DNA of 64,000 bases from Mobula birostris (lineage: Eukaryota): positions 95,992,062 through 96,056,061 of the forward strand of contig NC_092373.1 in NCBI RefSeq assembly GCF_030028105.1. The letters run 5' to 3'. The translations under genes were made by a program, and so were the position numbers. Below, piece by piece: positions 3,212-60,086 of the stretch (position 1 is its first letter; each line of letters begins with the position of its first letter). A model generated the notes under the pieces. It was given only the letters and a program-made list of their open reading frames with translations. It ran no database searches and was not told where the DNA came from.

Positions 3212-3520
3212 TACAACGCATAAAATGCTGGAGGAACTCAGCAGGTCAGGCAGCATCAATGAGGGAATTGAAAACCCTTCATTAGGACTGGAAAGAAAGC
3301 GGGCAGAAACCTGAATGAAAACATGGGGTATGTGGAGGAGTAGGAGTTGATGGGTAATAGGTGAATCCAGGTGAGTGGAGAAGTAGGAATGATGTGAGAA
3401 GCAGGCAGGTGATAAGTAGAAGAGGCAAAGATGGAATATGATAGAGGACAGTGGACCATGGAGTAATAGGAAGGAGGTGGAGAATCATAGAAGGGGAAGC
3501 GTGGGTGATGGGAAGTGTCT
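3212..3520 (-). mobile_element. Penelope 3'/pseudo-LTR fragment with a deleted hammerhead remnant
   Basis: aaaatgctggaggaactcagcaggtcaggcagcatc arm, cccttcattaggactgg remnant and purine-rich tract shared with 58898-59300. Confidence 0.7.
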
Positions 3521-4129
3521 AAAGTCACCCAACTTGAAACACATGGGTGTTCACCACTTAATAAAAGCAGACGGGCTGAACAGTGCACTGAGTGCATCAG
3601 TGGCTCACCTTTCAAAAGAAGCTACTACAGAACTAACTGCACAGCCCTCACTTGCTGCACTAGGCTGTGGCGATGACTCACTATTGGACAATAGTCTGAG
3701 CTGCTGAGACAGGCAGAGTCAGTCTGAATGTGGACAAGACAGTCATCTGGAGAGTGATGGAGAATCTGGGAAGGTAGCAAGAAGAACTGGAGAAACAGTA
3801 ACAAATTGCAGAACACCATGGGCTCATGCTACAGCCAGAATCAGTGATCTCCAGGAAACCGAGCCAAGAACCTATTGACACTTCAGAAGAATTAGACCCA
3901 GATACAGCTGTACATTCAGGGCCAGCACCGTGGGCTGCTGGTTCCAGCACACCCACAACAGAGCACGGCAGGGACCCAGCTGAGCACTTACCAGATGTAG
4001 CTACTTCCCTGAACATCGAAAGACATGTTCTAGAAGAACAGAAGTTACTGGAAGCAGAGCCGGTGGATTTGTCGTGGAGTTAGTAGGAGGGGAAGTCAGC
4101 TTACCTGTGTAAACTCTTATTGACTGCGA

Positions 4130-4545
4130 TCATATTTCCAGCAACAGGAAATCCCAACTCCTGAAGGGACATACAGTTGTTCACATCTCAAGGACATTGC
4201 TGACAAAGTCCCCCCCCCCCCCACCTGACTTGCTGAGATTCTCCTGTTGCTTGGCAGAGACGCTGTCTGTGCATGTAAGTTATTTAGAGGAAGTGCAGTG
4301 CATTCCAAAGCAGGAACCACTTCTAATCCAAGGTTACTTAAGTGAACACTGTCCCTTTCGACATTGAGGGGCTACAGCAAGTTGGAGGACATAATAAGAA
4401 GGCACAACTCACTTCAGGGGTACCTCACACAGTCGTCATTCTGGATGAGCAATGTGTTACCAGACATGAACACAAAAAAAATGTCATCGAGGCTGACATT
4501 TTTGAAGCAAGAAAGGGTAAAGACTGCAGTAAGACTGGTTAAAGG
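4130..4545 (+). mobile_element. Degenerate LTR-retrotransposon internal fragment (BEL/Pao-like)
   Basis: Frameshifted translation QEIPTPE...SHLKDIADKVPP...AEILLLLGRD resembles BEL/Pao polyprotein. Confidence 0.5.
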
Positions 4546-6179
4546 AGAGTCTCTAAGACTCTCCGTTCTTTTGCCGAAGACTTAATGAAATGATCATTTG
4601 AATTTTAGTTTCAATAGTTAAGTTTGACATCATGGATGTCAGGCGTGGAGTATTCTGCTTCAAGAGGCGCTGTTTGATTTGTATGCAATTTGCTTTGTAC
4701 GAACATCACTTCCTGTTGGTAAGCTTTTTTTTTACATCATTTCCTGTGCGGATTAATTTGGATTTTGACTTGGAGCAAACGTGGGTAGAATGACATCCAT
4801 CTCCAACCACTTTTTATTTTCCCTTGAAACAGCAGTATCTGTGAGTCTTAAACTTTCTTAATATTGGTAAACATTTAACCATATAACAATTACAGCACGG
4901 AAACAGACCATCTCGGCCCTTCTAGTCCATGCCGAACGCTTACTCTCACCTAGTCCCACTGACCCGCACTCAGCCCATAACCCTCCATTCCTTTCCTGTC
5001 CCTATAGGTAATATATTTGATTGATGTGCAAGTAGTTTGAAGGAAGTACTACGTTTATCATTCATTGCTATTAAGCTATCGTTTCACCACAAGTTCGCTT
5101 TAGTCCATGGCATAACTACTGAATGTTGCATAATTGATGTCACTAGCCCTTTGAGGAGAGTACTCCAATGATATTCTCTGGGCCTGTTTTCTCTTGAGGA
5201 GTGAGAGGTGGTCTTATTGAAAATACTCGAAAAAAGCTTGATGCTATTCTGACATAGGCATTGAGAACCAGGTGTGTCTATCTGAAAACAAGGTCATTGA
5301 GAGGCCTGGGTGCCCTTGAAAGCAGTTATAGACCCAGTCTGCTTGTTGTCTCCTTATGACAAATCACCATGCCCAAGAATCAATGGTGAATCTTCACTGC
5401 ACTCCATTGTAAATATTTATTTCCTTGTGTATGGAGATCAGACGTAGCTAGTATAGCAGATGGGCACCTCACCAGAGCAACATAAAATTGGAGCAAGATG
5501 CCTCAAATTACATTTCAGTTTGAGCTAATGTACCATTTCAACTTCTTTTTCAATGTCTGCTGAGTTTGTGGCTTAGGCTTAATGTTTTAGGTTTGTTAGG
5601 ATGGGTTTTGGTATAATGTGGGAAGTTAGGGGTCAGGTTAGGGGTATGGAGTGTGAGGTTACATAAAGAATTAGGGAGGAGCGGGATGTTGGAGTTCAGG
5701 TCAGACTACTCTGAAGTCGGACGCCAGTGATCCCCAAGGGGTCCCCGAGACCTCTGACCTTGGCCTGAGAGCAAGGGCTGGTGATCCTTAAAGTCCTGAG
5801 TTTGGAGGCCTGTGATCAGCGAATCCTGGACTCGGAAGTCCAGAGGTTGATGAGTCCAGAGGTTGAAGACCCTTTCAGCAAGTCCAGAGGTTGGAGGCCC
5901 GATGTCTGAGAGTCTAGAGCGATTGTCTGGAGGTCAGAGGCCAGGAGGCAGCTTGTCCAAGGCTTGCATGCGTGGGTGAGGAGGGTGATGGAAAGGGGCT
6001 TGTTTTGTTGTAGCTTGTTGTAGCTGCGTGGGGAATTGTCATGTTGAGGCTGGAATGTGTGGTGAGATTTGTGTGCTGCACCCAGCATAGCCTCAAACTG
6101 TGGTTGTTAATGCAAATGATGCATTTTACTGTATGCTTTGATGTAATCTATCTCCTGGGCCTGAGGTTCTGACCTCCTT

Positions 6180-7060
6180 CAAAAAGATATCTGCTGTGTG
6201 GGTGCCCAAGAAGAGCATGGTTGGACTTGCATCACCCGTAATTAATTGCTATACACACATGACTGCATGGCTAAGCACAGCTTCAATGCCATATACAAAT
6301 TCACTGACTGTTGTTGGACAATTACTGGGTGATCAGTTGGTGTATGTGATCGAGATACTGTATGTTAGCTGGTTGAGTAGTACTACAACAACAATCCCTT
6401 AGTGTTAGTAAAACTAAATAAATGGTTGTTGACTACAGGAAGAAATTTATGCCGGCATCTTTGGTTTCATTGAATGTTAACGAAGTTTGCCATGTCACGC
6501 ACATGCCAACAGATTTCTACAGGTGTACAGTTGAAATTATCCTGATTGGTTGCATTGTGGCCTGGTACAAATCAAATGTGCAGGAACGCAACTAGCTGCA
6601 GACAGTACTGGGCTTGGCCAATTACATTACTGGCACATTCTTTCCCACGATAGATAGTGTCTACATGAGATCCTACCTCAAGAAGGCAACATTTTATTGA
6701 AGATTTCCACCACCTGGGCATGCCATCTCACTGTTACCAGGAGGCCTGAAGTTCCATAATAACAGGTTCAAAAGCAGCTATTTCCCTTCAATCATTAAAT
6801 TCTTAAATAAACCTTCACAATTCTAATCACTATCTCAGCAACACTATGACCACTTTGCACAAAGAATTTTGCTTTTTTTGTCTAATTGTATTCTTGTGTA
6901 ATTTTGTATATAATGTTTGTTCTGTACAAAATTAGAATGTAAATGTATAATGGATGCTTTTCTTATGAATATTGTCTGATGCTACGTGCAAATAAGTTTT
7001 CATTAGACCTATGTATGCATGTATTTGTTTACTGTCATATGCATAATTTTTAACTTGATT
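6180..7060 (+). mobile_element. Degenerate Rex1/Babar-type LINE 3' fragments
   Basis: Remnants of FYRCTVEIILIGCIVAW and RFKSSYFPS motifs; AT-rich 3' UTR. Confidence 0.6.
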
Positions 7061-7738
7061 TACCTTCCATATACTCAAACCTCAAGTACATACAGTGTCT
7101 TGAAAATTTCAAAAGTATTCCTCCCCCACAACTATTTTTACATTTTACTGTCTCATTTTCTAAATTTAAAACCTATTTTAAACCTATTGATGTAAGATTT
7201 TTTGAACTAATTATGTATCAGGTCAAATCAAAATAAAACTTCCAAATCCTGTCAACAATTTATTAAAAATTAAAAACCAAAATTGAGTCCAGATTTTGTA
7301 ATTACTCCGCTAACTCTCCTCAGGTACAATATACGTGCTACCTTACCAACTCACCCAATTTATTGATGCAGAAAATTGGAGAATCACCTGTTTTCATAAG
7401 ATTCATAAATTCATACTCCTTCACTCTGAGGTCGAACAGTCTGGTAGATTTTCAATAGACCAAAATGAAGGCTAAACAGCATTCAAGACGAGTCAGGGAA
7501 ATGATTAATAGAGAAGCACATCTGGAGAAGGGTACAAAGCCACAGAACACCGCTCAGAGTTCAGTGCAGTCCACCGGGAAACAGTGGAAAACATATGAAA
7601 CCACAGCAAAACTGCCTCGATCAGATAGTCTCTCTAAACTTAGTTGCTGGAGAAGAATGGCACTTGTAAGCAAGGCTAGTAACACACACAAAATGCTGGA
7701 GGAACTCAGCAGGCCAGGCAGCATCTATGGAAGAATAT

Positions 7739-7774
7739 AGTCGATGTTTCAGGCCGAGACCCTTCAGCAGGACT
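7739..7774 (-). ncRNA. Degenerate minimal hammerhead ribozyme (core CUGCUGA, AUC triplet) in a Penelope-derived insert at about 7680-7785
   Basis: Reverse strand AGTC CTGCTGA AGGGTCTCGGCCT GAAAC ATC GACT; A6 mutated. Confidence 0.6.
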
Positions 7775-8232
7775 CTTCTCTTTTTTTATAAGAGGGGCCA
7801 CTCTGAGTAAGCTGCAGAAGTCAGTGGCTGCAACTGGAGATGAAGTTCATGGCTCCACACTCCCTAAGACTTTGCACAAAAAGGGTATTTAAGGAAGGGT
7901 GGCAAGGAAGAAGTCCCGGCTTAAAAATAAGCATATCCTTGCCCATAAAGACCTTGCAAAGCATCACTTAGAAGATACTGTACGGAAGTGGAAGAAGGTC
8001 TTGTGGTCAGATGAGACTAAAGTGGAACTTTTGGTTCTCAACACTAAGTGGTATTATGTGTGGCATAAATTTAATCCTGCGCATCAGCCAGGTAACACCA
8101 TCCCTACAGTAAATGTATGGTGAAAGTAGCATCATGCTGTGGGGATGCTCTTCAGCAGCAGAGTCTGGAAATCTGATCAGGATTGATGGGAAGATGAGTG
8201 TGCTGCTAAATGCAGAACGATCTGGATAAAAC

Positions 8233-8590
8233 GCAAACACGAGGAAATCTGCAAATAACACACATCAAAGTTGCTGGTGAATGCAACTTACTCTCTTACT
8301 CTCTTACTCTTACTATCTCTTACTAGCTCTTCCTTCAGTTAGTCCTGACAAAGGGTCTTGGCCCGAAACGTCGACTGTACCTCTTCCTAGAGATGCTGCC
8401 TGGCCTCCAGCAACTTTGATGTGTGTTGCTTGAATTTCCAGCATCTGCAGAATTCCTCGTGTTTGCATTTTGAAATCTCCAAATGCTGGAAATTCAAGCA
8501 ACCCACACAAAATGCTGGTGGAATGCAGCAGGCCAGACAGCATCCACAGGAAGAAGCACAGTCGATGTTTCAGGGCGAAACCCTTCGTCA
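8233..8590. mobile_element. Composite Penelope-derived hammerhead repeat insertion with 14-bp TSD
   Basis: gatctggataaaac at 8219-8232 and 8591-8604; internal inverted arms; hammerhead motifs on both strands; short (tactctct)n tract at about 8288-8325. Confidence 0.8.
8341..8376 (+). ncRNA. Minimal type I hammerhead motif with a G8-to-A core change
   Basis: AGTC CTGACAA AGGGTCTTGGCCC GAAAC GTC GACT. Confidence 0.65.
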
Positions 8591-8591
8591 G
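8560..8591 (-). ncRNA. 5'-truncated hammerhead motif
   Basis: Reverse strand CTGACGA AGGGTTTCGCCCT GAAAC ATC GACT; helix I 5' strand lost at the insertion edge. Confidence 0.55.
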
Positions 8592-10149
8592 ATCTGGATA
8601 AAACCTGCTAGCCTCTGCCAGAAAGCTTAAGCTGCAGAGGAAGTCCGTCTTTCAGCAGGACAGTGAGCCAAAGCGTACTGCCAGATCAACCACGGACTGG
8701 CTTCAGATGAAGAAAATTGACGTCCTTGACAGGCCCAGTCCTGACCTTAACCCAACCAAACATCGCTGGCAAGCGTCAAGATCGCTGTCTACTGCTGCTC
8801 CCCATCTAACCAAGCACAGCTTGAGCAATTTTACAAGGAGGAATTGGCAAATCTTGCCCCATTATGCTGTGCAAAGCTAATACAGACTTATCCAAAAAGA
8901 CTACTGGCTGTAATAGCTGTGAGAAGTGGTTCAACTAAGCACTGAGCAAAGGAGGATAAACACTTGAACTGCTGACACTTTTGTTTTTGAATTTTTAGTT
9001 TTTCATGGTTTACAGTTTTCCCTTTTTTGGGCTCTACTGTGGGAATGAAGAGAACATGTGATTCACAAATAAAAAATCTTGGTTAAATTGATCAAAATTC
9101 CTGGGTTGTAATACTCATTCTTGTGAACAAAGGATTGAGACTGAATGCCTTGACAAGGCACTGTATATGCTTGCTGTGTTTCAGTGACGAGTGTATGGGT
9201 TGTCATTTTCCAACCTGTGGAAGATGACAGCCAGTTCATTCATTATCTCTGAAACTGCAACCTTAAATCCTTGAATGCAGGTCATCAGGTCCAAGGTATG
9301 CCTTTCAGATCCAGTAATTCTCAGTACTAGTAATCGATGATTTCTTTCCATTCCTTATTTACCTGTAAAATGTAGTCCTCCACTATTGCTGGGAAGTTTC
9401 CTGTGTCTTATTTCATGAAGGGAACTTCTCTGTCCCCAGTATTTCTACTTGTCACAAAAGGGCCCATATTAATTTTTTTTGTATATCTGGAGAAATCTTT
9501 GCCTGCTTGATTTTTTTTTTCAGGCTTCCCTTGCGTTCTTCTACTTATCAGTGCCTTGGACTTCTGAATTCGAAACTTTTTCAACCCTGTTAGCTGCTTT
9601 TGGTAGCATTTTAATCCTTTTTTTGTCAACTAGATACTACTTTTAACTTTAGGTCTAGATCAGGAGTTTTGACATGGAAGATTGATGGTCTCTGCCCTCC
9701 AACTCTTCCCCCCCACCCCCAGAAATGCTGCCTGACCCACTGTTCCTCTAGATTCCAGCATCTGCAGTCTCTCATGTCACTAGTTCTAACTTGATGGCCT
9801 TGTTTACTTTTTGGCTATGTATCTAACTTGTAAACAATGTTTTTAAAATGTAGTTTCCCATTATACCAAAGACAGTGTCTCATAGCTTCATAGTTTTGTT
9901 CAAATTTAGGACTGTATAAAAATAAGTAATTTTAGTATTATAAGTTTTAAACCAAAGTTCTATCACTTTGTTCCCTTGGCTGCATGATTGTTATTTACTT
10001 TGTTCTTGTATTTCTTGTAGCACAGAATCTATTCGGTATGTTGAGCTCCTGCCAGTTCCTAGCCAGACAAGCATTTCTCTACCTTTCCTATAACCTCTCA
10101 CAAGGCCATCAACTCCTGTTTGATTCCTTATGCTACTTACTTATTTCGC

Positions 10150-14999: not shown

Positions 15000-15260
15000 T
15001 GTCCTTTGTTGCAGCCACCTATTACTTCCCAGTGATTCTATTGCTATTTCCATTTCCCCCTCTTCCATCTGCTATCTCCCCTCCTCGCCTGGATTCATCT
15101 ATTGCTTGCTCTGCTCCAATTCTACTGGCTATTTGCTCTTTCTTTGCAGATGAAGGGTCTTGACCCAAAACGTGACTTTGCTTCTACGATGCTGCCTGAC
15201 CCACTGAAATCCTCCAGCATCTCGTTTTTGATCCAGTTCCAGCACCTGCAGTATCTTGTT
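15000..15260 (+). mobile_element. Penelope 3' fragment with degenerate hammerhead
   Basis: Pyrimidine tract, then cagatgaagggtcttgacccaaaacgtgact and gatgctgcctgaccc...ctccagcat arm. Confidence 0.6.
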
Positions 15261-29603: not shown

Positions 29604-29713
29604 GTGAGTGTACTTTGTTGACCTGAGTTATGAAGAGAAATTCTTTTCATATCTTTCCATCCCACCCCCACCCTCACAGCAATTTAGAACCAACTTATTT
29701 TCTTATTTTCCTC

Positions 29714-29748
29714 ATCCTGATGAAGGACAGTGTACCTGAAATGTTGAC
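29714..29748 (+). ncRNA. Diverged hammerhead-like motif
   Basis: CTGATGA AGG-acagtgta-CCT GAAA TGTT GAC; helix III damaged. Confidence 0.45.
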
Positions 29749-29899
29749 TGAATTGATATGCCTTTCTCCCCACAAACAGTGCCTCTGCTGTTTGGTTTTA
29801 TTTTCTATTTCGAGCAACTGCAGATTTTTGATATTTTTATGTGTTTATGAGATGGTGATTTTTAAGAATCTGGCTATGTTAGGTAGTAAAGAATGGAAA

Positions 29900-30075: not shown

Positions 30076-32284
30076 AACTGGCTCGGCGTTCAGAACGTTC
30101 CAACCTTGCATCTGGGTTAGGTGGATGGGCAGTGATAGTCCTCCGCATCGACTCCTCTCCAAATCGCTCTCTCCATCTCTGGCAATGATACCACCAACGC
30201 TGTCTGCAACCCTGGCTTGAACATGTGGTAGCTCATAATGCCCAGCATGGCTCATCTCCTGAACCAGCCTCACCTCTGCATGCCTCATGATGCCCCAGCA
30301 TGATTCATTCCCCCAAACCAGCCTCGCCTCTGACTATCTCACAATATTTAATTCCGGATTTTGCTCCGGTGGCAGCACGTTACAGTAGCTCTGTGTGTTT
30401 GTTTGTCCTGACATTATTTAGTGCATTTCTTTTGTTTGTTTTTGTACTGGCTAGCAACACTGCGATGTAACAATGGACATCACTCTGTTTAAGAGCATTT
30501 TCATGATCCTTCTGGCTGTCGGATACTTTATTCCATCGAGTGCTGTGACTGCAGTAGTGGAGGCAATACTGTATAGACGAGGGAGCAGCTAATAGCAGCC
30601 TGCAAGCAGCCTTTGTTTGACCAACAGAAGTGCGATATTCCTAACGAACTGAGATGGAGATACTGAGGCAGCAGATTGTGTAAAAAGCGGCACAACAAGA
30701 GACGGAGATATGAACCATATCTCCTATCTATCATTGTGAGGAATGCAAGATCGCTGGCAAAAAAAATGGAGGAACTAGCAGTACTCATGAGGACACAGAA
30801 CGAGTACCGGGAATGCAGGGTTATGTGTTTCACTGAGACATGGCTACACGAAAAAATCCCAGATTCCAACGCTACTGTGAATGGGTTTACAACGATACGA
30901 GCAGGCAGAGTTAAGTTATAGTGCAGTAGGAGGAAGGGAGGTGGGCTTGCTGTGCTTGTGAACAATAGATGGTGTAATTCCAGTCACATTTCTGTGAAAG
31001 AACAAATCTGCGGTACGACGTTGGACTGCTTACTGTGAGTTTGTGTCCTTATTATCTACCGCGTGACTCAGATGCTCCATATTGCTTGTTGTCCGCATTC
31101 CACTTTCCCAACGCAGTCCCGATACTGTGTGTGACTTCACGCACACTACTATCGCGAGACTCCAGACTCAACACCCCAATGAGTTCACTGCAATATCGGG
31201 AAACTTTAACCTTCTTTCTCTCTCGAAAACCCTACCCTCCTTCAGTCAGTTTGACAAGTGTCGTACAAGAGAAAGTAAAACACTGGATCTCATGTAAGCA
31301 AAATGCTGAAGATGCATACAACTCCACAGCTCTCCCCCCACTTGGAAGATCAGGTCACAACCTGATTCACCTCACGCCCTTGTATGAGCCCAAAGTACAG
31401 CAACAGCTAGCTACCACCAAGATAGTAAAGAAATGTTCTCCAGAGGCCATTGAGGCTTTGAAGGGTTGCTTTGAGGTTACTGACTGGAATGTGCTTTGTG
31501 AACCATATGGGGAGGACATTAACAGACTTATCGATTGCATCACTGGCTACATCAAATCCTGTGTGGACATTGTAATACCATCAAGGACTGTTTGCTGCTT
31601 CTCTAGCAGCAAACCATGGGTCACCAGTGATCTGAAGGCTCTTCTCAAACACAAAAAGAGAGCTTTTAGATCTGGAGACAGAGGAATTGACACGTGCAGA
31701 GGGAGCTAAAGGAGAAGATCAAAGTGGCTAAAGAGGAATACAGGAGAGAGCTGGAGGACAAGCTTGGGCAGAGTAACACACGGGAGTTGTGGAGAGCGTG
31801 AAGAACATCTCTGGCTTCAATCAGCCTAGCTGTAGGGCCTCAGGAAACAGCCATGAACGGGCTAATGAGTAAACCAATTCTTCAGTAGGTTTGACAGTTG
31901 CCCTCAGCACACAGTCCAGGTGCTGAGGCACCCAATGTTCCCTCAACACCAATGCCTTCCTCCTTCCTCTTCCCTCCTCCCCCGTCCTATTCAACATGTG
32001 GGTGAACAACACAGGGTACCACTGTCTACATTCCTTCCTTGCTCTGAACCTACCATCAACACCTTCTCATACCAACTGCTATCATCTCGATCTTCACCTC
32101 CTCCAGCACCCATCTTCCACCAACTTCCCAGTCATCATGGACTCACCTTCACTACTGAGCAAGTGAGAAGGGCCCTGGGGAAACTCAAGACACAGCAAAG
32201 CAATGGGATCAGATGGTGTCAACCCCAATGTTCTGAAAGAGTGCACTGAGCAGCTGTGTGGAGTTCTCCAGCACGTTTTCAATC

Positions 32285-33096
32285 TGAGTACAGGGCTACC
32301 GTAGGAAACTTTGTCACATGGTGTGAGCAGAATTATCTGCAGCTTAATGTGAAAAAGACTAAGGAGCTGGTGCTGGACCTGAGGAGAGCTAAGGTACCGG
32401 TGACCCCTGTTTCCATCCAGGGGGTCAGTGTGGACATGGTGGAGGATTACAAGTACCTGGGGATACGAATTGACGATAAACTGGACTGGTCAAAGAACAC
32501 TGAGGCTGTCTACAAGAAGGGTCAGAGCCGTCTCTATTTCCGGAGGAGACTGAGGTCCTTTAACAACTGCCGGATGATGCTGAGGATGTTCTACGAGTCC
32601 GTGGTGGCCAGTGCTATCATGTTTGCTGTTGTGTGCTGGGGCAGCAGGCTGAGGGTAGCAGATACCAACAGAATCAACAAACTCATTTGTAAGGCCAGTG
32701 ATGTTGTGGGGATGGAACTGGACTCTCTCACGGTGGTGTCTGAAAAGAGGATGCTGTCTAAATTGCATGCCATCTTGGTCAACGTCTCCCATCCACTACG
32801 TAATGTACTGGGTAGGCACAGGAGTACATTCAGCCAGAGACTCATTCCACCGAGATGCAGCACAGAGTGTCATAGGAAGTCATTCCTGCCTGTGGCCATC
32901 AAACTTTACAACTCCTCCCTTGGAGGGTCAGACACCCTGAGCCAATAGGCTGGTCCTGGACTTATTTCATAATTTACTGGCATAATTTACATATTACTAT
33001 TTAACTATTTATGGTTCTATTACTGTTTATTATTTATGGTGCAACTGTAACGAAAACCAGTTTCCCCCGGGATCAATAGAGTATGACTATGACTAT
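32285..33096 (+). mobile_element. Nested younger 5'-truncated Rex1/Babar LINE
   Basis: Open ORF 32256..32948 (LQLNVKKTKELVLD, YKYLG, KKGQSRLYF); tail gtatgactatgactatg. Confidence 0.85.
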
Positions 33097-37350: not shown

Positions 37351-37953
37351 GATGAATTTTCTAAAATGTGATGTGTGGATTACAGTGCCCTCAAGTGTTA
37401 CAAAGACAGGATGCTGCCTTAGAACAGCAAAATTGAAGGTCACAGATGGACGTCCCAGTAGGTTGTTTGAGTTATTTCCTGCTTATTGATGCTGGTCTTT
37501 GGATCACATCGTATACTATAATGATAGACAATATGGAGCTTGAAATCCCTCTGCTGCCAAAACATTTGTCATTGTAGCAGTGAAGTGTGAATAGTATGTC
37601 TTTGTGACTGGGTGCAAAGTTGAATTACAGGAGTCTTCTAATTTGGTATGTCGATCAGAAATCAAGAACGTGGCAGGTAAAACAAAACAAAATCTTTATC
37701 ACACATCAATCTGATTTGAAGGATGAAAACTAGTGATTTGTCTTGACATTGAGACCTGCCTTCTCTATATCCCTGGTTCAAGTTTCAGAGTAGCTGAACT
37801 CATGGTAAGTAACAAGGAATGGTTGAGTGTTTAGGGCTTTCCAAAGGCATTGTCAAAGTGACTGATAATTGTATTACTCAGTTAATATTGTAGTTTAAAG
37901 CTGCCTTGGAGGTTGAACCTATATTTACTGTGCTACAAAGTCCTGAGTAGTTA

Positions 37954-38114
37954 CACACATAAAAGTTGCTGGTGAACGCAGCAGGCCTGACGAAGGGTCT
38001 CGGCCCGAAACGTCGACTGTACCTCTTCCTAGAGATGCTGCCTGGCCTGTAATGTTCACCAGCAACTTTTATGTGTGTTGCTTGAAATTCCAGCATCTGC
38101 AGATTTCCTCGTGT
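37954..38114 (+). mobile_element. 161-bp Penelope-derived hammerhead repeat with inverted arms and 13-bp TSD (1 mismatch)
   Basis: tcctgagtagtta (37941-37953) / tcctgaatagtta (38115-38127); left arm is an inverted copy of the right arm. Confidence 0.82.
37983..38018 (+). ncRNA. Minimal type I hammerhead ribozyme, intact core; predicted cleavage after C38014
   Basis: AGGC CTGACGA A GGGT-CTCG-GCCC GAAAC GTC GACT; one mismatch in helix I. Confidence 0.75.
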
Positions 38115-38339
38115 TCCTGAATAGTTAATTGTTTTCGATTCGAGTTTATTTATTATGCACAAAGCTGCTCATGTCTAAATCGCTTGGTTAGTAGAGTCTG
38201 GATTACTAACCATAGCCCTCGTATCTGCATAGTTGATGCACTGAATTTTCCTATTTTCAGATGAAGAGGTGTGTGGTGTAGAGTGTGCTTACTGGCTGCG
38301 TTACGGCCTGGTAAGAGAACACTGAGTGGAAAGTCCAAC

Positions 38340-40069: not shown

Positions 40070-40586
40070 GTACGGTTTGATTTTAATTTTGCTGATATAA
40101 GATGTGAAATTACTATCAATAGTGTGCTTTGAAAGAAGTGAATGAAAGCTTTAACAAAAAGATGGTTTCTAAAATAAAATAGCTGTGCAGAGGAATTTGA
40201 GAATTTAGCCAAAGATGCTGCAAGTCATGAGGAATGCCAAGCTCTTGTGAATGTCAACCCCCTAAAATATGCAAACATTCTCAAGTTGAAGTTAAATAAC
40301 AGCATTCACATGCCACAGTTCAAAGGCAGACTGCTGGTGGAGCAGCTGTTTCACAGCATGTAAGAATATGCAGCTTGACATATTTTAATACAATCTTGCA
40401 CAATCCTTACACTTCACATTCTTTCAAAACATCCAGTTGCTCCCTCCTTCCTTCTGGCCCTTCCACTAAACTTGTGCCCCTCTTGTCTTCAGTAGTAGCA
40501 GCTGCCCCCGAGAGTCACAATGCCATGAGTGCAGCACTGATGATCCAGAGCAATGCTGACTTTTCAGGTGGAATACATTGTGTCTG

Positions 40587-40694
40587 TTAGTCCTGACGAA
40601 GGGTCTCGTCCTGAAACGTCGACTGTCTCTCTTCATAGAGATGCTGCCTGGCCTGCTGTGTTCACCAGCAACTTTGATGTGTATTGTCTCTTGT
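40587..40694 (+). mobile_element. 108-bp hammerhead-containing mini-insertion with 9-bp TSD
   Basis: ttgtgtctg at 40578-40586 and 40695-40703. Confidence 0.75.
40589..40624 (+). ncRNA. Minimal type I hammerhead ribozyme, intact core and helix I; predicted cleavage after C40620
   Basis: AGTC CTGACGA AGGG-TCTCG-TCCT GAAAC GTC GACT; AGUC/GACU helix I; palindromic ACGU helix III. Confidence 0.78.
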
Positions 40695-42563: not shown

Positions 42564-42905
42564 CAGTGGTCCCCAACCTCCGGGCCGTGGACTGATACAT
42601 TGCCGCGAAGAGTGCAACGGTAGCCGGGACGCACTCAGCACATCTTTAAGAAAAAAGCAGAAATAAACAAGCTAATTAACTAGGTGCTGCCGGGCATGTA
42701 AATGTCGACCCAGATCAGAAGTGATGCAATCGGCAATTGCCTCTGATCTGGGCCGACGTTTACATGCCGGGCAGCACCTAATTAATTAGCTTGTTTATTT
42801 CGGCTTTTTTCTTAAAGATGTGCTGGGTGCGTTCCGACTACCGCTGCGCCGCTGCATTCTTTGCAGCAATGTATCGGTCTGCTGCCCGGAGGTTGGGGAC
42901 CACTG
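42564..42905. mobile_element. 342-bp fold-back hAT (Charlie-type) MITE with perfect 8-bp TSD
   Basis: gcatacag at 42556-42563 and 42906-42913; TIR cagtggtccccaacctccggg; near-palindromic over its whole length. Confidence 0.92.
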
Positions 42906-46384: not shown

Positions 46385-49300
46385 TAGAAACCATAGAAAC
46401 TAGAGCACAGAAACAGGCCTCTTGGCCCTTCTTGGCTGTGCCGAACCATTTTCTGCCTAGTCCCACTGACCTGCACATGGACCATATCCCTCCATGCACC
46501 TCCCATCCATGTATCTGTCCAATTTATTCTTAAATGTTAAAAAAGAACCTGCATTTACCACCTCGTCTGGCAGCTCATTCCATACTCCCACCACTCTCTG
46601 TGTGAAGAAGCCCCCCCCAATGTTCCCTTCAAACTTTTCCCCCCTCACCCTTAACCCATGTCCTCTGGTTTTTTTCTCCCCTTGCCTCAGTGGAAAAAGC
46701 CTGCTTGCGTTCACTCTATCTACACCCATCATAATTTTATATACCTCCATCAAATCTCCCCTCATTCTTCTACGCTCCGGGGAATGAAGACCTAACCTAT
46801 TCAACCTCTCTCTGTAACTCAGTTTCACAAGTTTCGGCAACATCCTTGTAAACTTTTCTGCACGCTTTCAACCTTATTAATATCCTTCGTGTAATTTGGA
46901 GACCAAAACTGAACACATTACTCCAGATTCGGCCTCACCAATGCCTTATACAACCTCACCATAACAATCCAACTCTTATACTCAATACTTTGATTTATAA
47001 AGGCCAATGTACCAAAAGCTCTCTTTACGACCCTATCTACCTGTGACGCCACTTTTAAGGAATTTTGTATCTGTATTCCCAGAACCCTCTGTTCTACTGC
47101 ACTCCTCAGTGCCCTACCATTCACCTTGTATGTTCTACCTTAGTTTGTCCTTCCAAAGTGCAATACCTCTCACTTGTCTGTATTAAACTCCATATGCCAT
47201 TTTTCAGCCCATTTTTCCAGCTGGTCCAAATCCCTCTGCAAGCTTTGAAAACCTTCCTCACTGTCCACTACACTTCCAATCTTTGTATCATCAGCAAAAT
47301 TGCTGATCCAATTTACCACATTCTCATCCAGATCATTGATATAGATGACAAATAACAATGGACCCAGCACTGATCCCTGTGGCACACCACTAGTCACAGG
47401 CCTCCACTCGGAGAAGCAATTCTCTACTACCACTCTTTGGCTTCTTCCATTGAACCAATGTCTAATCCAGTTTACCACCTCTCCATGTATACCTAGCGAC
47501 TGAATTTTCCTAACTAACCTCCCATGTGGGACCTTGTCAAAGGCCTTACTGAAGTCCATGTAGACAATATCCACTGTCTTCCCTTCATCCACTTTCCTGG
47601 TAACCTCCTCGAAAAACTCCAATAGATTGGTCAAGCATGACCTACCACGCACAAAGCCATGTTGACTCTCCCTAATAAGTCCCTGTCTGTCCAAATGCTT
47701 GTAGATTCTGTCTCTTAGTACTCCCTCCAATAACTTACCTACTACCGACGTTAAATTTACTGGCCTATAATTTCCCGGATTTCTTTTCGATCCTTTTTTA
47801 AACAATAGAACAACATGAGCCACTCTCCAATCCTCCAGCACCTCACCTGTAGACAGCGATATTTTAAATATTTCTGCCAGGGCCCCTGCAATTTCAACAC
47901 TAGTCTCCTTTAAGATCCGAGGGAACACCCTGTCAGGTCCCAAGGATTTATCCACTTTAATTTTCCTCAAGGCAGCAAGCACCTCCTCCTTTTCGATCTG
48001 TTCAGTTTCCATGATCTCACTACTTGTTTCCCTTAATTCCAAAGACTTCATGCCAGTTTCCTTAGTAAATACAGACGCAAAAAACCTATTTAAGATCTCC
48101 CCCATTACCTTTGGTTCCGCACATAGCCGACCACTCTGATCTTCAAGAGGACCAATTTTATCCCCTACAATCCTTTTGCTCTTAATATACCTGTAAAAGC
48201 TCTTTGGATTATCCTTCACTTTGACTGTCAATGCAACCTCATGTCTTCTTTTAGCCCTCCTGATTTCATTAAGTATTTTCTTGCACTTCTTATACTCAAG
48301 CACCTTATTTACTCCGTTTCCTATACATGTCATACAACTCCCTCCTCTTCTTTATCAGAGTTGCAATATCCCTTGAGAACCAAGGTTCCTTATTCCTATT
48401 CACTTTGCCTTTAATCCTAACAGGAACATACAAATTCTGCACTCTCAAAATTTCTCCTTTGAAGGCTTCCCACCTACCGATCACATTCTTGCCAGAGAAC
48501 AACCTGTCCCAATCCACGCTTTTTAGATCCTTTCTCATTTCTTCAAATTTGGCCTTCTTCCAGTTAAGAACCTCAACCCTAGGACCAGATCTATCCTTGT
48601 CCATGATCAAATTGAAACTAATGGTGTTATGATCACTGGAACCAAAGTGCTCCCCTACACAGTCTTCTGTCACTTGTCCTAACTCGTTTCCTAACGGGAG
48701 ATCCAATATTGCATCCCCTCTAGTTGGTCCCTCTATATATTGATTTAGAAAACTTTCCTGAACACATTTTACAAACTCTAAACCATCTAGACCCCTAACA
48801 GTATGGGAGTCCCAATCAATATATGGAAAATTAAAATCCCCTACCACCACAACTTTATGTTTCCTGCAGTTGCCTGCTATCTCTCTGCAGATTTGCTCTT
48901 CCAATTCTCGTTGACTATTGGGTGGTCTGTAATGTGGCCATACCTTTCCTGTTTCTCAGCTCCACCCATGAGGACTCAGTAGACAAGCCCTCTAATCTGT
49001 CCTGCCTGAGCACTGCTGTAATATTTTCCCTAACAAGCAATGCTACTCCCCCACCTTTCATTCCTCTGCCTCGATCACATCTGAAACATTGGAACCCTGG
49101 AATATTAACCTGCCAGTCCTGCCGCTCTTGTGGCCAAGTTTCACTAATTGCTATAAGGTCATAATTCCACGTGTCAATCCACGCCCTCAACTCATCCGCC
49201 TTCCCCGCAATACTCCTCGTCTTGTAATATATACCCCTCAGAAGATTCTTACCACCACTCACAACCTTTCTATCAGCGGATTTGCTTGAACTTTTAACAT

Positions 49301-49890
49301 CATTTATTTTCACTCCAGCCACACTGTCAGCTCTGGCACTCTGGTTCCCATCCCCCTGCAAATCTAGTCTAAAGCCTCCCCAATAGCACTAACAAACCTC
49401 CCTGAAAGGATATTGGTCCCCCTGTAGTTCAAGTGTAACCCGTCGCTCTTGTACGGGTCCCACCTGCCCCAGAAGAGGTCCCAAGTATCCTGAAATCTGA
49501 AACCCTGCCCCCTACACCAGTTCCTCAGCCATTTGTTCATCCTCCAGAGCAACCTATTCCTACCCTCATTGGCACGTAGCACAGGTAGCAATCCTGAGAT
49601 TACCACCCTCGAGGTCCTGCTTTTCAACTTCCTACCAAGCTCTCTATACTCACTCTCCAGGACCTTCTCACTCTTCCTTGCTATGTCATTGGTACCGATG
49701 TGCACCATGACATCTGGCTGATCACCCTCCCACTTCAGAATGTCATGCAATCGATCAGAGGCATCCTTGACCCTGGCACCTGGGAGGCAACACACTATCC
49801 TGGATTCTCTGTCACGACCACAGAACCTCCTATCTGTACCTCTAACTATCGAGTCCCCTATCACTACCGCTCTCCTCTTTTTCCACCCTC
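46385..49890 (-). mobile_element. Long, relatively young 5'-truncated CR1 LINE (ORF1 SGNH esterase plus frameshifted APE-RT ORF2)
   Basis: ORF1 IGDSIVRG...VHIGTND...DGLHLN; ORF2 ISETW, VGDFN, SDH, NYRPV, MDFSKAFD, GVPQGSVLGP, FADD; CR1 tail (tctatggtttcta). Confidence 0.95.
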
Positions 49891-51669
49891 CCTATTTTTT
49901 CAGGGTTGTTCTGTTAAATAGCAAAATTTGTAAAATTTAGTGTTTTCCGCTGTGTAGTTAACACATGACCTATTTGGTTATATTTTGATCAATATATAGT
50001 AGAGATTGATATTAGAATGGAAGCCTCTCTGCGCCATGTAATGAAAGCATGGCTTCTTTCTGCTAAAATCTGCATTGTGTATAAACCAATAATACAGTGA
50101 AGTTGGACTGTTATGACTTTAACTTGTACATTGATAAATATCTTTGCAGTGACCCAGTGCTTTTCAATCACTATTCAAAAAAAAATTGACATGAATACCC
50201 CGCATCTGCCTTGTTTAACTGTGTGTGGTTAAAGAGTGAAACATCTGATGTATTTCATTTTGTATACCAGAACAGGCCACTGCAATCTATTATCAAAATA
50301 TTTACCATTTATAGCCATGTTCATTTTGTTTTCCACATTTGTTCTCAATATTTAGTTCAGCCTTGTTCATTGCCTGTAGTTCAGAATAATCTCTATTCCA
50401 TTTCACAGCCTCGTCATATTGTCTGCTTTATATGTTCACCACCCCCTTTATAAATTTAAACATTAAACCTGCGTATATCCCTCTTAGTATTTGAGATTGC
50501 ATAAAGTGCAAGAATTTGACTTGTCTTTTGCTGTCAGAATCTTGAGTACTTGCCCACACACTATGCACTCCCCGACCATCCCCAACATATTTTGTATTTT
50601 CTACTGTCTTTTAAAATTCAGTTTGTTGATTATTTACTAAATTAACACTCCCTTTAGTATCTCCCCTGTAAAACTAGTGTGAACACAGTACCTTGGGAAG
50701 CTAGAACTGTGTAACACTCCATACAAATTGACACATCCTGGGACGTAAGCTTTATTTCCTCAGCTGAGCTCCAGTAAGTTTTCTTGTATGGTAGTGATGT
50801 TTTAAGTAAACCATCTACTGATATGTCCACATAACGTTCTTTCTGCCTCTTACATTCTCATTGCTTAATACCAGTATTATTAAACCACATCTTTCTCAAC
50901 ATTTTGTTGGTTCTCACCAACTTTCCAATGTTTTTGAATCCCTTTTTTATTCTAGACATGTATTCTAGAATGGCAATTTCCACCTGTCCAGATTGCTGAG
51001 ATCAGAGAACATGAATGACTGTTTTCCTTCCAAATAACTTGTGCTTCTCAAATACCATACTGAGATATGAAGGCCACATGTCCTATCGTGTTGTAGAATA
51101 GGATGCTTGACTCATATTCAGGAAAGTACTTAGTCCATTGCCTTTGTCACATTCAAGCTGTGCAAATGTTTAAATGTTGAACCTATAAAAAGGTTAAGAC
51201 AACCTCAAACACCTAGCCATTATTTTGGTGACTAGCATCCTAGAGGGCTCATTTTTCCTCCTCCTTCCCCACGACTTATCCCACCACGCAACCTCCACTC
51301 TTCTCCCCCACCCTGAGCACCTTAAGTGTGGATTGAAGAATGGAATCTCAAACCTTTTTAGATTAAAATTCTGTGGCTGGTGATTGTGTTCATCTGATTA
51401 TCATCTTTCCACTTCCTATTTTTCATACCAGAACTGAATGCTTATTCAAGAAAATATTAAGCCCAGCTCCTCTGTAAAGTATTGGATCCTGAATCAGTTA
51501 GTTTTAGATGATGAATCCCTTACAGGTGTAAAATGAAAGGTAAAATTTCACCAGTTGTTTTTGTCTCTTTTTACTCTTTCTACCCATCTTGTCCCATTTT
51601 AAATGAAAAGTTCTGTCTTTTTCCACACCATATCTCTCAATAAAATATATTTATTTTTACTTTATTGTC

Positions 51670-54300: not shown

Positions 54301-54347
54301 ATCCTTGGAGGCTAGCACTACCCTAGGTAAGTGCCCGTTGTAGGTAA

Positions 54348-54445
54348 TACACACACAATACTGGAGGAACTCAAATCAGGCAGCAGCTATGGAGGGAAAT
54401 GAACAGTTGAAGCTTTGGGCTGAGGCCCTTTATCATTCCTGGAAT
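54348..54445 (-). repeat. Highly degenerate copy of the Penelope/hammerhead repeat
   Basis: acacacaatactggaggaactca...ggcagca arm; eroded core gataaagggcctcagcccaaagc on - strand. Confidence 0.55.
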
Positions 54446-55259: not shown

Positions 55260-55345
55260 GTCAGTCCTATGATGCTCTAACATTGGTGGGGTGTTGGTGG
55301 CTGGGAGTGGGGGTAGTGTCTGCTGGGTGTTTACATGTTTACTAA

Positions 55346-55572
55346 AGACCAGCTGGTGGCGCAGTGACATCAGCGCCGGACTCCGGAGCGAAGGTTCCCG
55401 AGTTCGAATCCAGTCGGGCTGCTCCCAAGCATGCAACTTGGCCTCATTTTAAAAAAAACTGCACTGTGAGAAGGACGTGGGGGACCACTCACAGAATCTT
55501 TCCTCCAAGACAACCACTTGAAAAAGTGGTCGCCGAGACTTTGGCAGAGTATGGCACGCGCAAAAAAAAAGC
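55346..55572 (+). mobile_element. Young tRNA-derived SINE with poly(A) tail and 7-bp TSD
   Basis: A box TGGCGCAGTGAC, B box GTTCGAATCC, CpG-rich, oligo(A) tail, TSD ttactaa (55339-55345 / 55573-55579). Confidence 0.85.
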
Positions 55573-56779
55573 TTACTAACTGATTTCTCACAGAGTGTTG
55601 AACAATCGTTATGAGTCATACTGCTCAGAAAATGGCTTTTCAGCCCACCGTGTTACATTGACTATTGGTACTTGCTATGTAACTGTTCCTTCCACCTGTT
55701 GAGTTTGCCACTCAGATAGTAAGCAGTATTGACAATGACCTAAGTAGTGCTATAACATAAGAACAAAGCAAATGGAAGCAGGAGTTGACTTCCATTGTTC
55801 TTCTGTCATTCAGTAAGATAGTTTTACTACTCCCAACCCTATATCCCTTGATTCCAGTTGTATCCTAAAAATCTATCATTATCTGCTTTGAATATATTTG
55901 ACAACTAAACTTCTACAGTTGAGATCATTCCAAAGGTTCCAGTCTGATCTTTCTTCATCCTGAACAATTGACCACTAGTTTTGAGTCAACTTGTCCCAGC
56001 CAGTGAAATGTATCAATTCTGCATCTAATCTATTGAACCCGTTTTAACATTTCAATGAGATTATTTCTATATTGTTTTTTAATCTTAAACCTAGTCCTTG
56101 TATGCTTAATCTCACCTTTAGACAACTAGTGAAGTGGAAAACTTTGGCTGTATTCCCCTCTGATGCAAATTATCATTCCTTGGAGAGGACTGACTTGTAA
56201 ACCATAATCCAGGTGCAGTTTAGTGGGGCCCAGTGTAATTATCTATTTTTGAACTCAAGCCTTCTTGCATTAAAGACTAACATAGCACTTGCCTTCCTGA
56301 ATGGATATTGCAGCACCATAGAAGCCCCTGAGCACCGATCTTTTGTCTTTCTACTTTTCCTACCAAATGGATGAATCAGAATCAAAATCACCAGGTTTCG
56401 TATCACTGGCATCTGTCGTGAAGTTCGTTGTTTTGCAGCAGCAGTACAGTGCTACCCTTTTCTTGCCCATTCACTTAACCTTAATCTTTGAGTCTTGTGG
56501 CAGTCTTACACCTTTTGTATCGTCAGCAAATCTGATGTTGCTAAGTTTGATTCATTTCATTCAAATCATTGCTACAGATGATGAACAGCTGGGGCCCTAA
56601 CATAGAACTCTGAAGAATAACCTCCAGATACAGTAGTTGACTCACTTTATTCCTATTTTCAGTTTTCTATCCATTAACCAATTATCAGTTCATTCCTGTA
56701 CAGTACTCCAAATCTCGTGCTCCAATTTTAATGATCTTGTGTGCATCCTTATGGAAGACCTGAAATACCAGGTATACAA

Positions 56780-57616: not shown

Positions 57617-58960
57617 ACAACATCAGCTAGTTGACCTTCATCTGTTCCACTAGTTATATCATTAAGAAACTTTATATTATTTGTAGAACTTGGTTTCCCT
57701 CTCAAGTCCGTGTAGGACCCATTTCTCCAATACAGATTGTTTTTTGTTGCTAATTTCTTTCAGCCCATTCATTGTGCATTTGAGCTTTGAAAGCTTTTTT
57801 CCCCTTAAGACAGATACAAAATGTTCATGTAGTTTCTCAGTCTGTAAGAGACCCAGATTTTGAAATTCTCCTGATCTTTGGGCTTGGTGCTTTAATAGCG
57901 ACAACACCTTTTAGGTTAGCTTGATAGCCATGACTAAACCACTTATTTTTTGTGACATTTGATTATATTTTTACTACCCTTCCATAAAGATACTTTCAGT
58001 TCCATAATCATCAAATAACTTTTTTAGTGCAATGTAGACTGATCTATTGTTCCAGAAAACTCTATTAATGCTGCATAAATTTTCATCAGTGGGTTCATCC
58101 TCCACATTATTGTCGTTCATTTGGGTTTCCCAGTCTTCATGTAGATTGAAATTCTCATAATTATTGATTTACCCTCATTACACTCTTATTCTCTTTGTAT
58201 CAGTAAGCCGATAATGGGACCAATTGATATTTCATCCAAAAACATCTCTCTTTTCCCAATAACATCATCTCTTTCCATGAACATGCGACTTGTATTCATG
58301 ACTTGAAAGTGCACGGGTCTTGTAAAGTTGAGGCAGTGGAAGATAATTGAACCCTTTGACCTTTTGTTTCAGTACTTTAGGGACATTATGGAGTCCAGTA
58401 CCTTGCTTGAGTGGCCCACTATCCATCACTTTAAGCATTCTGCCTTTACCAGCAGCCTTTTACCATTTCCGTGTATGCTGCAGCAGCATGTTAAGAATTT
58501 TTAGAAAGTGCCTTTAAAGCTTCCATTCTGTACAACCTAGAAGGACAAGGAGAGTAGTGGTGCATGGGAACGCCACTACTTTCCATATAGCACACTACCC
58601 AAGCTTGGGAATGGATCCCTGTTCTTTCACTACTGTCTGGATAATAATCTAGTAAACCTCCATCTAATATTAATTTGAGAGCACCAACTGTCTACTATTT
58701 TCCATAGATGATGCCTGACCTGCTTCATTCCTCCAGCATTTTGTGTATGTTGCTTTTACCGTTGGTACTGCAATGCTTGAAGACAACGACACTCTGCCAC
58801 CTTAGTACAAGCACTAAATACTGTTGTTTTTACCCATTAACAGCCGGTGTCATTTGGTTGGTTTCCCTTGTAATTATCTCGCAAAGATAATATATTGAAA
58901 CACACACAAAATGCTGCAGGAACCCAGCAGGTCAGGCAGCATCTATGGAGTGGAATAAAC

Positions 58961-58996
58961 AGTCGACGTTTCAGGCTGAAACCCTTCATCAGGACT
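58961..58996 (-). ncRNA. Minimal type I hammerhead ribozyme, intact core; predicted cleavage between 58965 and 58964
   Basis: Reverse strand AGTC CTGATGA A GGGT-TTCA-GCCT GAAAC GTC GACT. Confidence 0.78.
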
Positions 58997-59837
58997 GGAA
59001 AGGAAGGAGAAAGAAGCCAGAATAAGGTGGGGTGGGGAGGGGAAGGAGTACATTCTGGCAGCTGATAGATGTGGAGGTGAGGTGGGGGGGTTGTTGAAGT
59101 GAGAAGCTTGGAGAAGATGATGGATGGAAAAGGTAAAGGGATCTGATAGGAGAGGAGAAAGGGAAGGAGGAGGGGTATCAGAAGATGAGGAGAAGGGGAG
59201 GGTTAAGAGTGGAGGCCAGAGTAGGGAATTGAAAAAGAGAGAAGGGGCAGGGGAGAGAATTGGAGAAATCAGTGGTCAGGTTGGAGGCTACCCAGATGGA
59301 ATATGAGGTGTTGCTCCTCCAACCTGAGAATGGTCTCATTATGGCCATATGCAGCATATGGCCACACATTTCAATTCTGCTTCCCATTCCAATTCCATCA
59401 CTCTGGTCCCTGGCCTCCTCCTCTACTCTTTTGACATGATGAGGTCACTCTCAGGTTGGAAGGGCAACACATAATATTCCATCTTGGTAGTTTCCAACCT
59501 GATGACATGAACGTTAATTTCTTTAATTTCTGGTAATTTATCTCCCCCCCCCCCCACCGCCCCCATCCCTTCTCTCTTTTTCCATTTCTCATTCTGGTTT
59601 CCCTCTTACTGGTTTTCTTCTCTGGCTTATCTCTTTCCCTTTTTCCTGTGGTTCACTCTCCTCTCTCCTCTCTTATCAGATTCCTTCTTCAGGTCTTTAG
59701 CATTTCACTTCATTCTCCCCACCCACCTTCCCCCTCACCTGGCTTCACTGATCACCTGTCAGCTTGTACTGCTTCCCCACCCCTCCCCCTTCCCCTCCCC
59801 TCACCTCCTTAATCTGGCTTCTTCCCCCTTCCTTTCC

Positions 59838-59873
59838 AGTCCTGATGCAGAGTCTTGGCCTGAAACATTGGGA
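59838..59873 (+). ncRNA. Degenerate hammerhead in the right arm of the Penelope palindrome
   Basis: AGTC CTGATGC AGAGTCTTGGCCT GAAAC ATT GGGA; A9 and helix I/III mutated. Confidence 0.5.
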
Positions 59874-60086
59874 GTTTATTCATTTTCATAGGCACTACCT
59901 GACCTGCTGAGTTCCTTTTCTGTTTGTTATCTGTATGGTCTGTTTTACATGACAGCACACTGAAGTGAGAAGCAGGAAGTGTTTTCTTTTGTAAATAATT
60001 TTGATTGGTTTGAAAGTGGGGAAATGCTGATTGCCACGCATTCCAGTATAGTTGTTAGTTCTATTTTGTTTTCTTCACCCCACCAG

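Follow-up and report, generated by a model that had tools for sequence, protein, structure and literature searches.

Minimal hammerhead motifs in the FARP2 introns of the ray Mobula birostris and their probable origin in a Neptune-like Penelope element

Introduction

Minimal hammerhead ribozymes (min-HHRs) were described in 2014 in the pseudo-long terminal repeats (pLTRs) of metazoan Penelope-like elements (PLEs; Cervera and De la Pena, PMC4209133), and low activity was reported for them. Here we analyze a family of such motifs in the introns of FARP2 in the ray Mobula birostris, over a stretch of 64,000 nucleotides that we call the window (RefSeq assembly GCF_030028105.1, contig NC_092373.1, positions 95,992,062 to 96,056,061 of the forward strand). 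Unsigned coordinates are those of the window unless a locus is named, and signed positions count from the first base of the hammerhead (+1). The PLE hammerhead is conserved and yet dispensable for insertion in one in vitro system. That system is PAc, the Poseidon element of Anolis carolinensis (Frangieh et al. 2024, PMC11167929), whose hammerhead cut only with the element's protein.

The ray motif shares with min-HHRs a type I topology, a short helix I, an extra nucleotide after A9, a palindromic 15.2-16.2 segment without loop III and the presence of one motif per pLTR; in both, most copies are dispersed, single and truncated, and opposite-strand pairs lie 100-700 bp apart. It differs in helix II (3-4 bp in the ray versus 7-8 bp in Schistosoma), in a G10.1-U11.1 pair in its main young subfamily where min-HHRs have G-C, and in a load far above the ~4,000 minimal motifs of coelacanth and ~9,000 of Xenopus (PMC4209133). 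Judged by sequence, the ray motif agrees with a minimal PLE hammerhead at every point except the frequent G-U at 10.1-11.1, and its cleavage is a prediction.

The coding part is closest in plan to the Neptune PLEs (Craig et al. 2021, PMC8557442), which likewise have a reverse transcriptase (RT) followed, at the C-terminus, by a GIY-YIG endonuclease with two internal cysteines, a CX2-5CxxC linker and a DKG motif, as well as partial-tandem pLTRs, an inverted 5'-truncated partner, a 30-40 bp tail and target duplications of variable length. Nematis elements also have a linker motif (PMC8557442). With PAc the ray element shares two 3' ends one tail apart, corresponding to two internal RT start sites, and insertion apparently from uncut RNA. 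On the other hand, the Poseidon clade lacks the linker zinc finger that the ray element has, and the PAc open reading frame (ORF) begins inside the hammerhead whereas the likely ATG of the ray element is at ~+170 (PMC11167929).

Non-LTR retrozymes, too, are built of repeats that bear type I hammerheads and are related to pLTRs (PMC7229834; Li et al. 2026, bioRxiv 10.64898/2026.07.22.740005), and up to 120,000 canonical retrozyme copies occur in axolotl (Cervera and de la Pena 2020, PMC7229834). Retrozymes form head-to-tail arrays, often with canonical hammerheads, and give abundant circles (PMC7229834; bioRxiv 10.64898/2026.07.22.740005), whereas in the ray the copies lie dispersed and are the truncated ends of a coding element whose motif is minimal. 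We considered a retrozyme array for the window and rejected it: the copies there are single or inverted, and only rare short direct repeats of the motif occur among the inspected junction loci.

No shark or ray is named in the text consulted or the searchable supplement of the 2014 study (PMC4209133), and our literature searches turned up nothing on PLE hammerheads of elasmobranchs (sharks and rays). One chondrichthyan genome is covered by Li et al., whose supplements may list the ray family. Hammerheads in Penelope pLTRs have been known since 2014. What we add is a pile-up of insertion 5' ends at the ribozyme's 5' edge, which we did not find in the literature, and the value of the finding is carried mostly by the copy number and by this 5'-end record.

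Results and Discussion

The parent element

We assign the motif with high confidence to the pLTRs of a Neptune-like Penelope element, as its minimal type I hammerhead, and regard the FARP2 copies as 5'-truncated insertions that are likely inert. Within the window, the link to a Penelope element comes from two copies, 58892-59343(-) and 59359-59942(+), in which the C-terminus of the endonuclease is retained: positions 59438-59533(+) translate as the C-terminus of a GIY-YIG domain, and this copy and its inverted partner both align with the element's coding end. L004, one of 60 genome loci, contains an RT, a cysteine linker and a GIY-YIG domain, with a stop ~300 nt before the motif. L112 is a near-full element whose ORF is flanked by a hammerhead in each pLTR (2821-2856 and 6337-6372); the order is 5' pLTR (hammerhead, arm), tail, frame, stop at 6039 and 3' pLTR with hammerhead. 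An initial annotation of the window had named the link to Penelope, and in both loci the motif indeed sits beside RT and GIY-YIG frames. The same annotation had proposed a ribozyme-bearing retroelement family. The motif is retroelement-borne as supposed; the repeat, rather than being a stand-alone ribozyme repeat, is the 5'-truncated 3' end of a coding retroelement.

A protein search of the genome gave 94,640 first-look candidates, of which 150 were scored (92-100% identity, query included); ten long-frame loci were retrieved and ORFs were listed for three. The long frame runs in the order DKG, RT with YIDD, CX4CX2C linker and GIY-YIG. In L113 a single 824-aa frame holds DKG, YIDD, the linker CKRNKCYTC, which has the CX2-5CxxC form of Neptune, and a GIY-YIG domain with two internal cysteines; its Pfam matches (RVT_1, E 9e-5; GIY-YIG, E 1e-3) both fall below the curated cut-offs. 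The element as a whole consists of a pLTR (pyrimidine-rich stretch, hammerhead at +1 to +36, arm to ~+99), a 35-40 nt tail to ~+135, the frame and a second pLTR. It thus shows the features of endonuclease-bearing (EN+) PLEs, both in coding (a single ORF, RT then C-terminal GIY-YIG, internal cysteines, downstream histidines) and in structure (pLTRs from partial tandems, a 30-40 bp tail, an inverted 5' partner, variable target duplication). The nearest named relatives of its protein among 120 listed homologs are elasmobranch proteins with 59-76% identity, and no named PLE reference is among these 120.

The element is therefore likely, from its sequence features, to be a Neptune-like EN+ Penelope. 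Some points weigh against this assignment. Neptune was separated from Nematis by motif and not by a tree. No fully open frame was found among the 150 scored of the 94,640 candidates, the longest being 913 aa where ~1,000 aa are expected, and the long copies L111 and L112 both lose the frame in a C-run.

This C-run, between RT and linker (~5525-5545 in L112), is also where L004 loses its frame; it may be a hot spot of mutation or assembly error, or a programmed shift. Under the name "divergent protein kinase domain 1C isoform X2", a stingray protein (P0001) is listed that is 76% identical to the Penelope RT and endonuclease over 90% of the query and is likely a mis-named gene model.

Copies of the motif in FARP2

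FARP2 lies on the + strand, and its identification as the host gene held: exon 1343-1453 matches named FARP2 proteins of rays and sharks, the nearest named being those of rays, and tblastn located ten further exons in the window. The motif was found by mismatch scan and profile search at all 11 places where about ten copies had been noted, each of them in a FARP2 intron. The mismatch scan gave six copies with at most 6 mismatches and eight with at most 7, compared to none in 20 Markov-shuffled windows at either cut-off. The profile search gave 13 matches: besides the 11 places, these are a piece consisting only of arm at 58694-58759(+) and another arm piece, inverted, at 37947-37989(-). The copies and fragments are as follows.

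1-142, minus strand: fragment of the Penelope GIY-YIG coding end with no hammerhead inside the window, 77% to L112 at -490 to -331 relative to the 3' hammerhead.
3208-3355, minus strand: old subfamily C copy (profile search); the 5' half of the hammerhead is at 3272-3289, the 3' half is deleted and the arm is kept.
7673-7774, minus strand: short copy from +1 (mismatch scan), hammerhead 7739-7774 with A6>C and G16.2>A.
8219-8604, both strands: composite insertion inside a transposase-like frame, which by eye we take to be Tc1-like, with a 14-bp target duplication (8219-8232/8591-8604).
8222-8285, minus strand: first piece of this composite, an inverted tail piece.
8308-8467, plus strand: second piece, a copy with hammerhead 8341-8376 (G8>A) and tail.
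8463-8598, minus strand: third piece, a copy whose hammerhead (8560) begins at +5 and has G16.2>A.
15126-15254, plus strand: degenerate old copy, hammerhead remnant ~15147-15177 (mismatch scan, profile search).
29656-29827, plus strand: degenerate old copy, hammerhead remnant 29713-29749 (mismatch scan, profile search).
37942-38126, both strands: inverted twin insertion with an 11-bp target duplication containing one mismatch (37942-37952/38116-38126); an arm piece, 37953-37987(-), is fused to a tailed copy, 37983-38115(+), with intact core and palindrome and broken helix I.
40583-40687, plus strand: young short copy of subfamily A, sense to FARP2, with a complete minimal hammerhead (40589-40624) and a predicted cut after 40620.
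54340-54440, minus strand: degenerate old copy, hammerhead remnant 54405-54440 (mismatch scan, profile search).
58694-58759, plus strand: arm-only fragment without hammerhead (profile search).
58892-59343, minus strand: longer subfamily C copy, antisense to FARP2 (alignment to the element), with endonuclease C-terminus (59276-59343), pyrimidine-rich 3' untranslated region (UTR), complete minimal hammerhead (58961-58996) and arm.
59359-59942, plus strand: inverted partner of the preceding copy (alignment to the element, translation), with in-frame endonuclease C-terminus (59438-59533), 3' UTR, degenerate hammerhead (59838-59873) and arm.

Three copies had been credited with an intact core, and three cores are intact (40589(+), 58961-58996(-) and 37983(+)), but only two of these copies retain the whole fold. 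In 40589-40624(+) and 58961-58996(-) the 36-nt motif is complete, with core, palindrome and helices I and II. In 37983(+) a fusion with the inverted partner at ~+4 has disrupted helix I. An Rfam scan of the window reported no hammerhead family even at E<=1. Since Rfam misses every window copy, standard annotation undercounts these motifs.

Folding and catalysis

The core boxes CUGANGA, GAAA and UH stand in type I order in the two complete copies and in the core of 37983(+), and helix I of 4-5 bp, helix II, the extra nucleotide after A9 and the loop-less palindromic stub of helix III are all present. The complete monomers are predicted to form a rod, with core G5-G8 paired to C15.2-C17. The z-scores of the rod are -0.7 to -1.3, so that the fold is not unusual by energy, and the double-hammerhead arrangement is predicted to be 7-10 kcal/mol less stable than two rods. 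A single hammerhead is therefore likely, on these models, to be an inactive rod whose cleavage needs a partner and the element's protein. Such a rod fits the low activity reported for these motifs (PMC4209133) and the protein requirement in Anolis (PMC11167929). Failure of protein-free monomer or dimer RNA to cleave, which the initial annotation had put forward as a refutation, would not be one, because the dimer is predicted to be less stable than the rods and the Anolis hammerhead cut only with protein.

Abundance and subfamilies

Exact searches of the 4.01-Gb assembly with a 28-nt core pattern matched at 56,193 sites, and with a 33-nt piece of the arm at 55,330, while the reversed controls matched at none; this bears out the very high copy number that had been suspected. 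The suspected density of about one copy per 6 kb is likewise close: 31 core-covering copies, five of them complete, occur in 174,000 bases of unselected DNA, or one per 5.6 kb. As 164 of these 174 kb belong to this one region, extrapolation is rough, and it suggests a genome load of ~700,000 motifs and ~100,000 complete ones.

We sorted 388 distinct copies (188 loci plus the window) by best natural reference into subfamilies A (248), B (17) and C (123). G10.1-U11.1 is found in 115/145 subfamily A copies; subfamily B has G-C, as do some copies of A and C. Copies often lie in target duplications of 8-15 bp, often with an inverted 5' partner, and their 3' ends fall at ~+99 or +135. This scale (at least 56,000 exact cores and likely ~100,000 complete or 700,000 total motifs in 4 Gb) and the record of junctions are what may be useful about the family.

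Selection on the fold

Between subfamilies the hammerhead is conserved in excess, a point on which the initial annotation had let its proposal stand or fall: 30-34 of 36 majority letters are identical, compared to 20-23/37 upstream and 7-8/14 just downstream, with subfamily B resting on six copies. The comparison was extended to 80 metagenome loci, found with an alignment query and chosen only because their RT is related to that of the element. A sense-strand motif is carried by 22 of the 80 (25 sense hits and 1 antisense hit, in an inverted pLTR copy; 0 in 20 shuffles). Helix I was not required by the search. Nevertheless 23/28 distinct sense motifs pair over at least 4 bp, as against 22/708 swapped partners, and 4-5 pair types occur at each position, so that the covariation asked of helix I is present across distant Penelope elements. 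G10.1-C11.1 is kept in 20/22 distant elements, and helix III palindromes vary among relatives (AUAU, ACCGGU, AGCU and others) and include the ACGU of the ray. Because the fold is conserved between subfamilies and helix I covaries across distant elements, it is under selection in active elements as far as sequence can tell.

One metagenome PLE, L204 (3582 on the plus strand, 1087 on the minus strand), has a near-identical core, an ACGU palindrome and a GGG/CCC helix II. Its helix I is fully different yet compensated, and it too has an inverted 5' partner.

In contrast, inserted copies decay neutrally by the same kind of evidence, with no selection on the fold after insertion, because CpG sites in the core change at the rate found outside it (A, 9.1% vs 9.4%; C, 39.8% vs 40.4%) and few old copies are complete (3/89 in subfamily C vs 82/157 in subfamily A). 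Counting against neutrality, non-CpG core sites in A changed in 1.7% of cases versus 3.5% for non-core hammerhead sites (p=0.0004; arm, 1.8%), and those in C in 8.5% versus ~11% (p=0.03). We attribute this difference to variation among parent elements outside the core; weak selection on some inserted copies is a possible reading that we do not adopt.

It could be speculated that cutting of host pre-mRNAs by complete sense copies is frequent enough to be of consequence, or that such copies have been co-opted; in FARP2, the copy at 40589 would act with that at 37983. In favor of this are the five complete copies in 174 kb and the presence in FARP2 of two sense copies with intact ACGU palindromes 2.6 kb apart. 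We consider it extremely unlikely, given the neutral CpG decay of the core, the predicted inactive rod and the fact that sense copies are not scarce over the span of FARP2 (among core-covering copies 15 are sense and 10 antisense; 3/4 complete ones sense; the numbers are small). The intronic copies are likely inert in FARP2.

The 5' ends of insertions

Insertion 5' ends were scored in a set chosen blind to the hammerhead: of the 55,330 arm matches, the 100 that head the listing were taken, and 95 distinct copies among them were analyzed. Of the young arm-selected copies 35/89 end in -5 to +15, at the 5' edge of the hammerhead. At +1 to +3 alone, 15 of the 75 copies at risk end (0.067 per nt), compared to 0.001-0.002 per nt upstream. 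In contrast, ends at the predicted cut site (+31 to +35) were found in 2/94 copies, both of them inverted junctions. Genome-wide, 3,850 of 47,379 exact matches to +2..+23 have no A at +1 and 3,770 more lack the preceding T; ~25 of 30 inspected loci in each of these sets are true junctions. A second set of 48 ORF-bearing copies gave 7/34 ends in -5 to +15, with 6/34 at -3 to +2, and none at the cut site; the difference from the arm-selected set has p=0.06. The pile-up was left uncounted in old subfamily C, because the conserved motif is where local alignments tend to break off when copies have diverged.

The sharp upstream edge and downstream tail of this distribution fit run-off at an RNA 5' end near -3 to +2, where the sequence is an initiator-like YCAGT. 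The pile-up thus likely marks the 5' end of the RNA and points to the copying of uncut RNA. In D. virilis Penelope the pLTR likewise holds the promoter, but transcription begins upstream of an intron whose end is at the hammerhead (PMC2377424). Against a start at +1 for every template, 27/34 ORF-bearing copies run upstream of the hammerhead, so a single start there cannot explain them all. Contigs of four runs (four organisms) cover the motif with the same variant letters; contigs cannot show starts, ends or levels.

Another possibility is that the pile-up is unrelated to an RNA start and that synthesis ends there because the hammerhead is self-complementary, so that two nascent cDNAs can anneal or fold back. 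Consistent with this, an inverted partner accompanies 25/35 copies ending in -5 to +15 versus 17/44 longer ones, and a few junctions use the AGTC/GACT homology (L298). We nonetheless think it unlikely, if a serious contender, as the pile-up persists in copies without an inverted partner (10/47), many of them with clean target duplications. In addition, the hairpin is weak as DNA (-3 to -4 kcal/mol) with helix I unused, and only 3/27 partners start near +37, the site that fold-back predicts. A stall at an RNA helix would also be expected at its 3' foot rather than its 5' foot. With so weak a hairpin and so few fitting junctions, fold-back via helix I was rejected as the main cause and is kept as a rival only. 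The pairing of short with short and long with long twins (27/3/6/11, p=0.0002) was not used, as some twins were counted from both sides and the pairing may reflect synchronous growth.

Two other candidates were dropped. A cap-derived G before +1 was suggested by four of five copies, but the first 100 listed have 34 G, 46 C and 20 A. For a spliced-leader origin, the 5' edge resembles a 3' splice site, but short copies keep the AG and have no common upstream exon. The resemblance itself (a pyrimidine tract and AG, with TACTAAC in some) is seen at L023:1440-1500(-), in other A copies and at window 59812-59839; sense copies could, by sequence, act as cryptic acceptors in host introns.

It is also conceivable that the short +1 to +135 copies are a separate non-autonomous family, SINE-like or retrozyme-like, made from short masters rather than as by-products of the full element. 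Very many copies are only 100-135 nt long, start at +1 or +2 and have their own target duplications, and animal retrozymes have been proposed to derive from PLE pLTRs (bioRxiv 10.64898/2026.07.22.740005). We judge a separate family very unlikely: at positions 24, 38, 50 and 88 the same variants occur at comparable frequencies in short and long copies, the tail is about equally frequent in both (20/35 short vs 28/54 long), the same pile-up appears in ORF-bearing copies, and the copies are dispersed or inverted twins rather than head-to-tail arrays.

A possible replication cycle

We tentatively propose a cycle in which RNA starts at the first base of the hammerhead, uncut linear RNA primed at the first site gives ~40% of young insertions (100-135 nt), and tandem or circularized RNA gives the longer, scarless copies. 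The element's protein would nick DNA and prime reverse transcription within the RNA at two sites (~+99 and ~+135), as the Anolis PLE does in vitro; two sites are proposed because the 3' ends match the two priming sites plus tail of that element (PMC11167929). A lone hammerhead would likely fold into the inactive rod, with core G5-G8 held by C15.2-C17. Two hammerheads on one full-length or tandem RNA might pair through their ACGU palindromes and cut after GUC at +32, probably with help from the element's protein. A share of the RNA likely starts at the first base of the hammerhead and is copied uncut into short copies of 100-135 nt, and tandem or cut-and-ligated circular RNA is the likely source of copies that extend past the hammerhead into more than one unit. 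The active element would likely need the motif, and its conservation between subfamilies would follow.

On the other hand, the motif may be kept as a signal for protein binding or folding, as a rod hairpin or dimerization element, and rarely or never cut in vivo. Several observations lean that way: insertions have no scar at the cut site (2/94 arm-selected, 0/48 ORF-bearing), the catalytic dimer is predicted to be the less stable form, Anolis hammerhead mutants left in vitro insertion unchanged and no Anolis RNA-seq ends fall at the cut site (PMC11167929), and 8/9 Xenopus dimer elements were uncleaved (bioRxiv 10.64898/2026.07.22.740005). We find this reading improbable, as the catalytic boxes, G10.1-C11.1 and helix I covariation are kept across distant elements beyond the needs of a plain hairpin; a non-G at 17 is kept too, though the search descriptor required it. 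Moreover, cut-and-religated circles would leave no scar, and nearest-neighbor energies ignore tertiary contacts and protein.

The 5' edge of the ribozyme gathers insertion ends while the cut site is almost free of them; this pattern makes direct predictions for cap analysis of gene expression (CAGE) and for reverse transcription PCR of circles. If the cycle is right, ray genomes, in which young insertions number tens of thousands and motifs lie at close to one per 6 kb, would offer the best natural record of how Penelope replicates and of the purpose of its ribozyme.

Other features of the window

Two side observations concern FARP2 itself. The exon at 60078 can extend to ~61301 as a long alternative last exon (59964-61343, plus strand), and the extension matches residues 388-794 of a named 803-aa stingray FARP2 without RhoGEF and PH domains (P0130); ESM Atlas yielded nothing for the 459-aa frame of this stretch. 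The C-terminus of a named ray FARP2 isoform X2 (P0121, residues 1011-1039) matches the antisense strand of the repeat arm at 38021-38092(-); this gene model ends, by sequence, inside the repeat, through either exonization or an annotation artefact.

Other repeats are present, and the family names given to the last three are those we presume for them. Long inverted repeats resembling a miniature inverted-repeat transposable element lie at 42564-42905, with 106-nt arms that are 92% complementary and 57-nt outer arms. A transposase-like element remnant at 7800-8940(+) is split by the Penelope insertion, a remnant like a CR1 long interspersed nuclear element (LINE) at 46457-49891(-) has a 393-aa RT frame (Pfam RVT_1), and another LINE-like remnant is found at 30978-32948(+).

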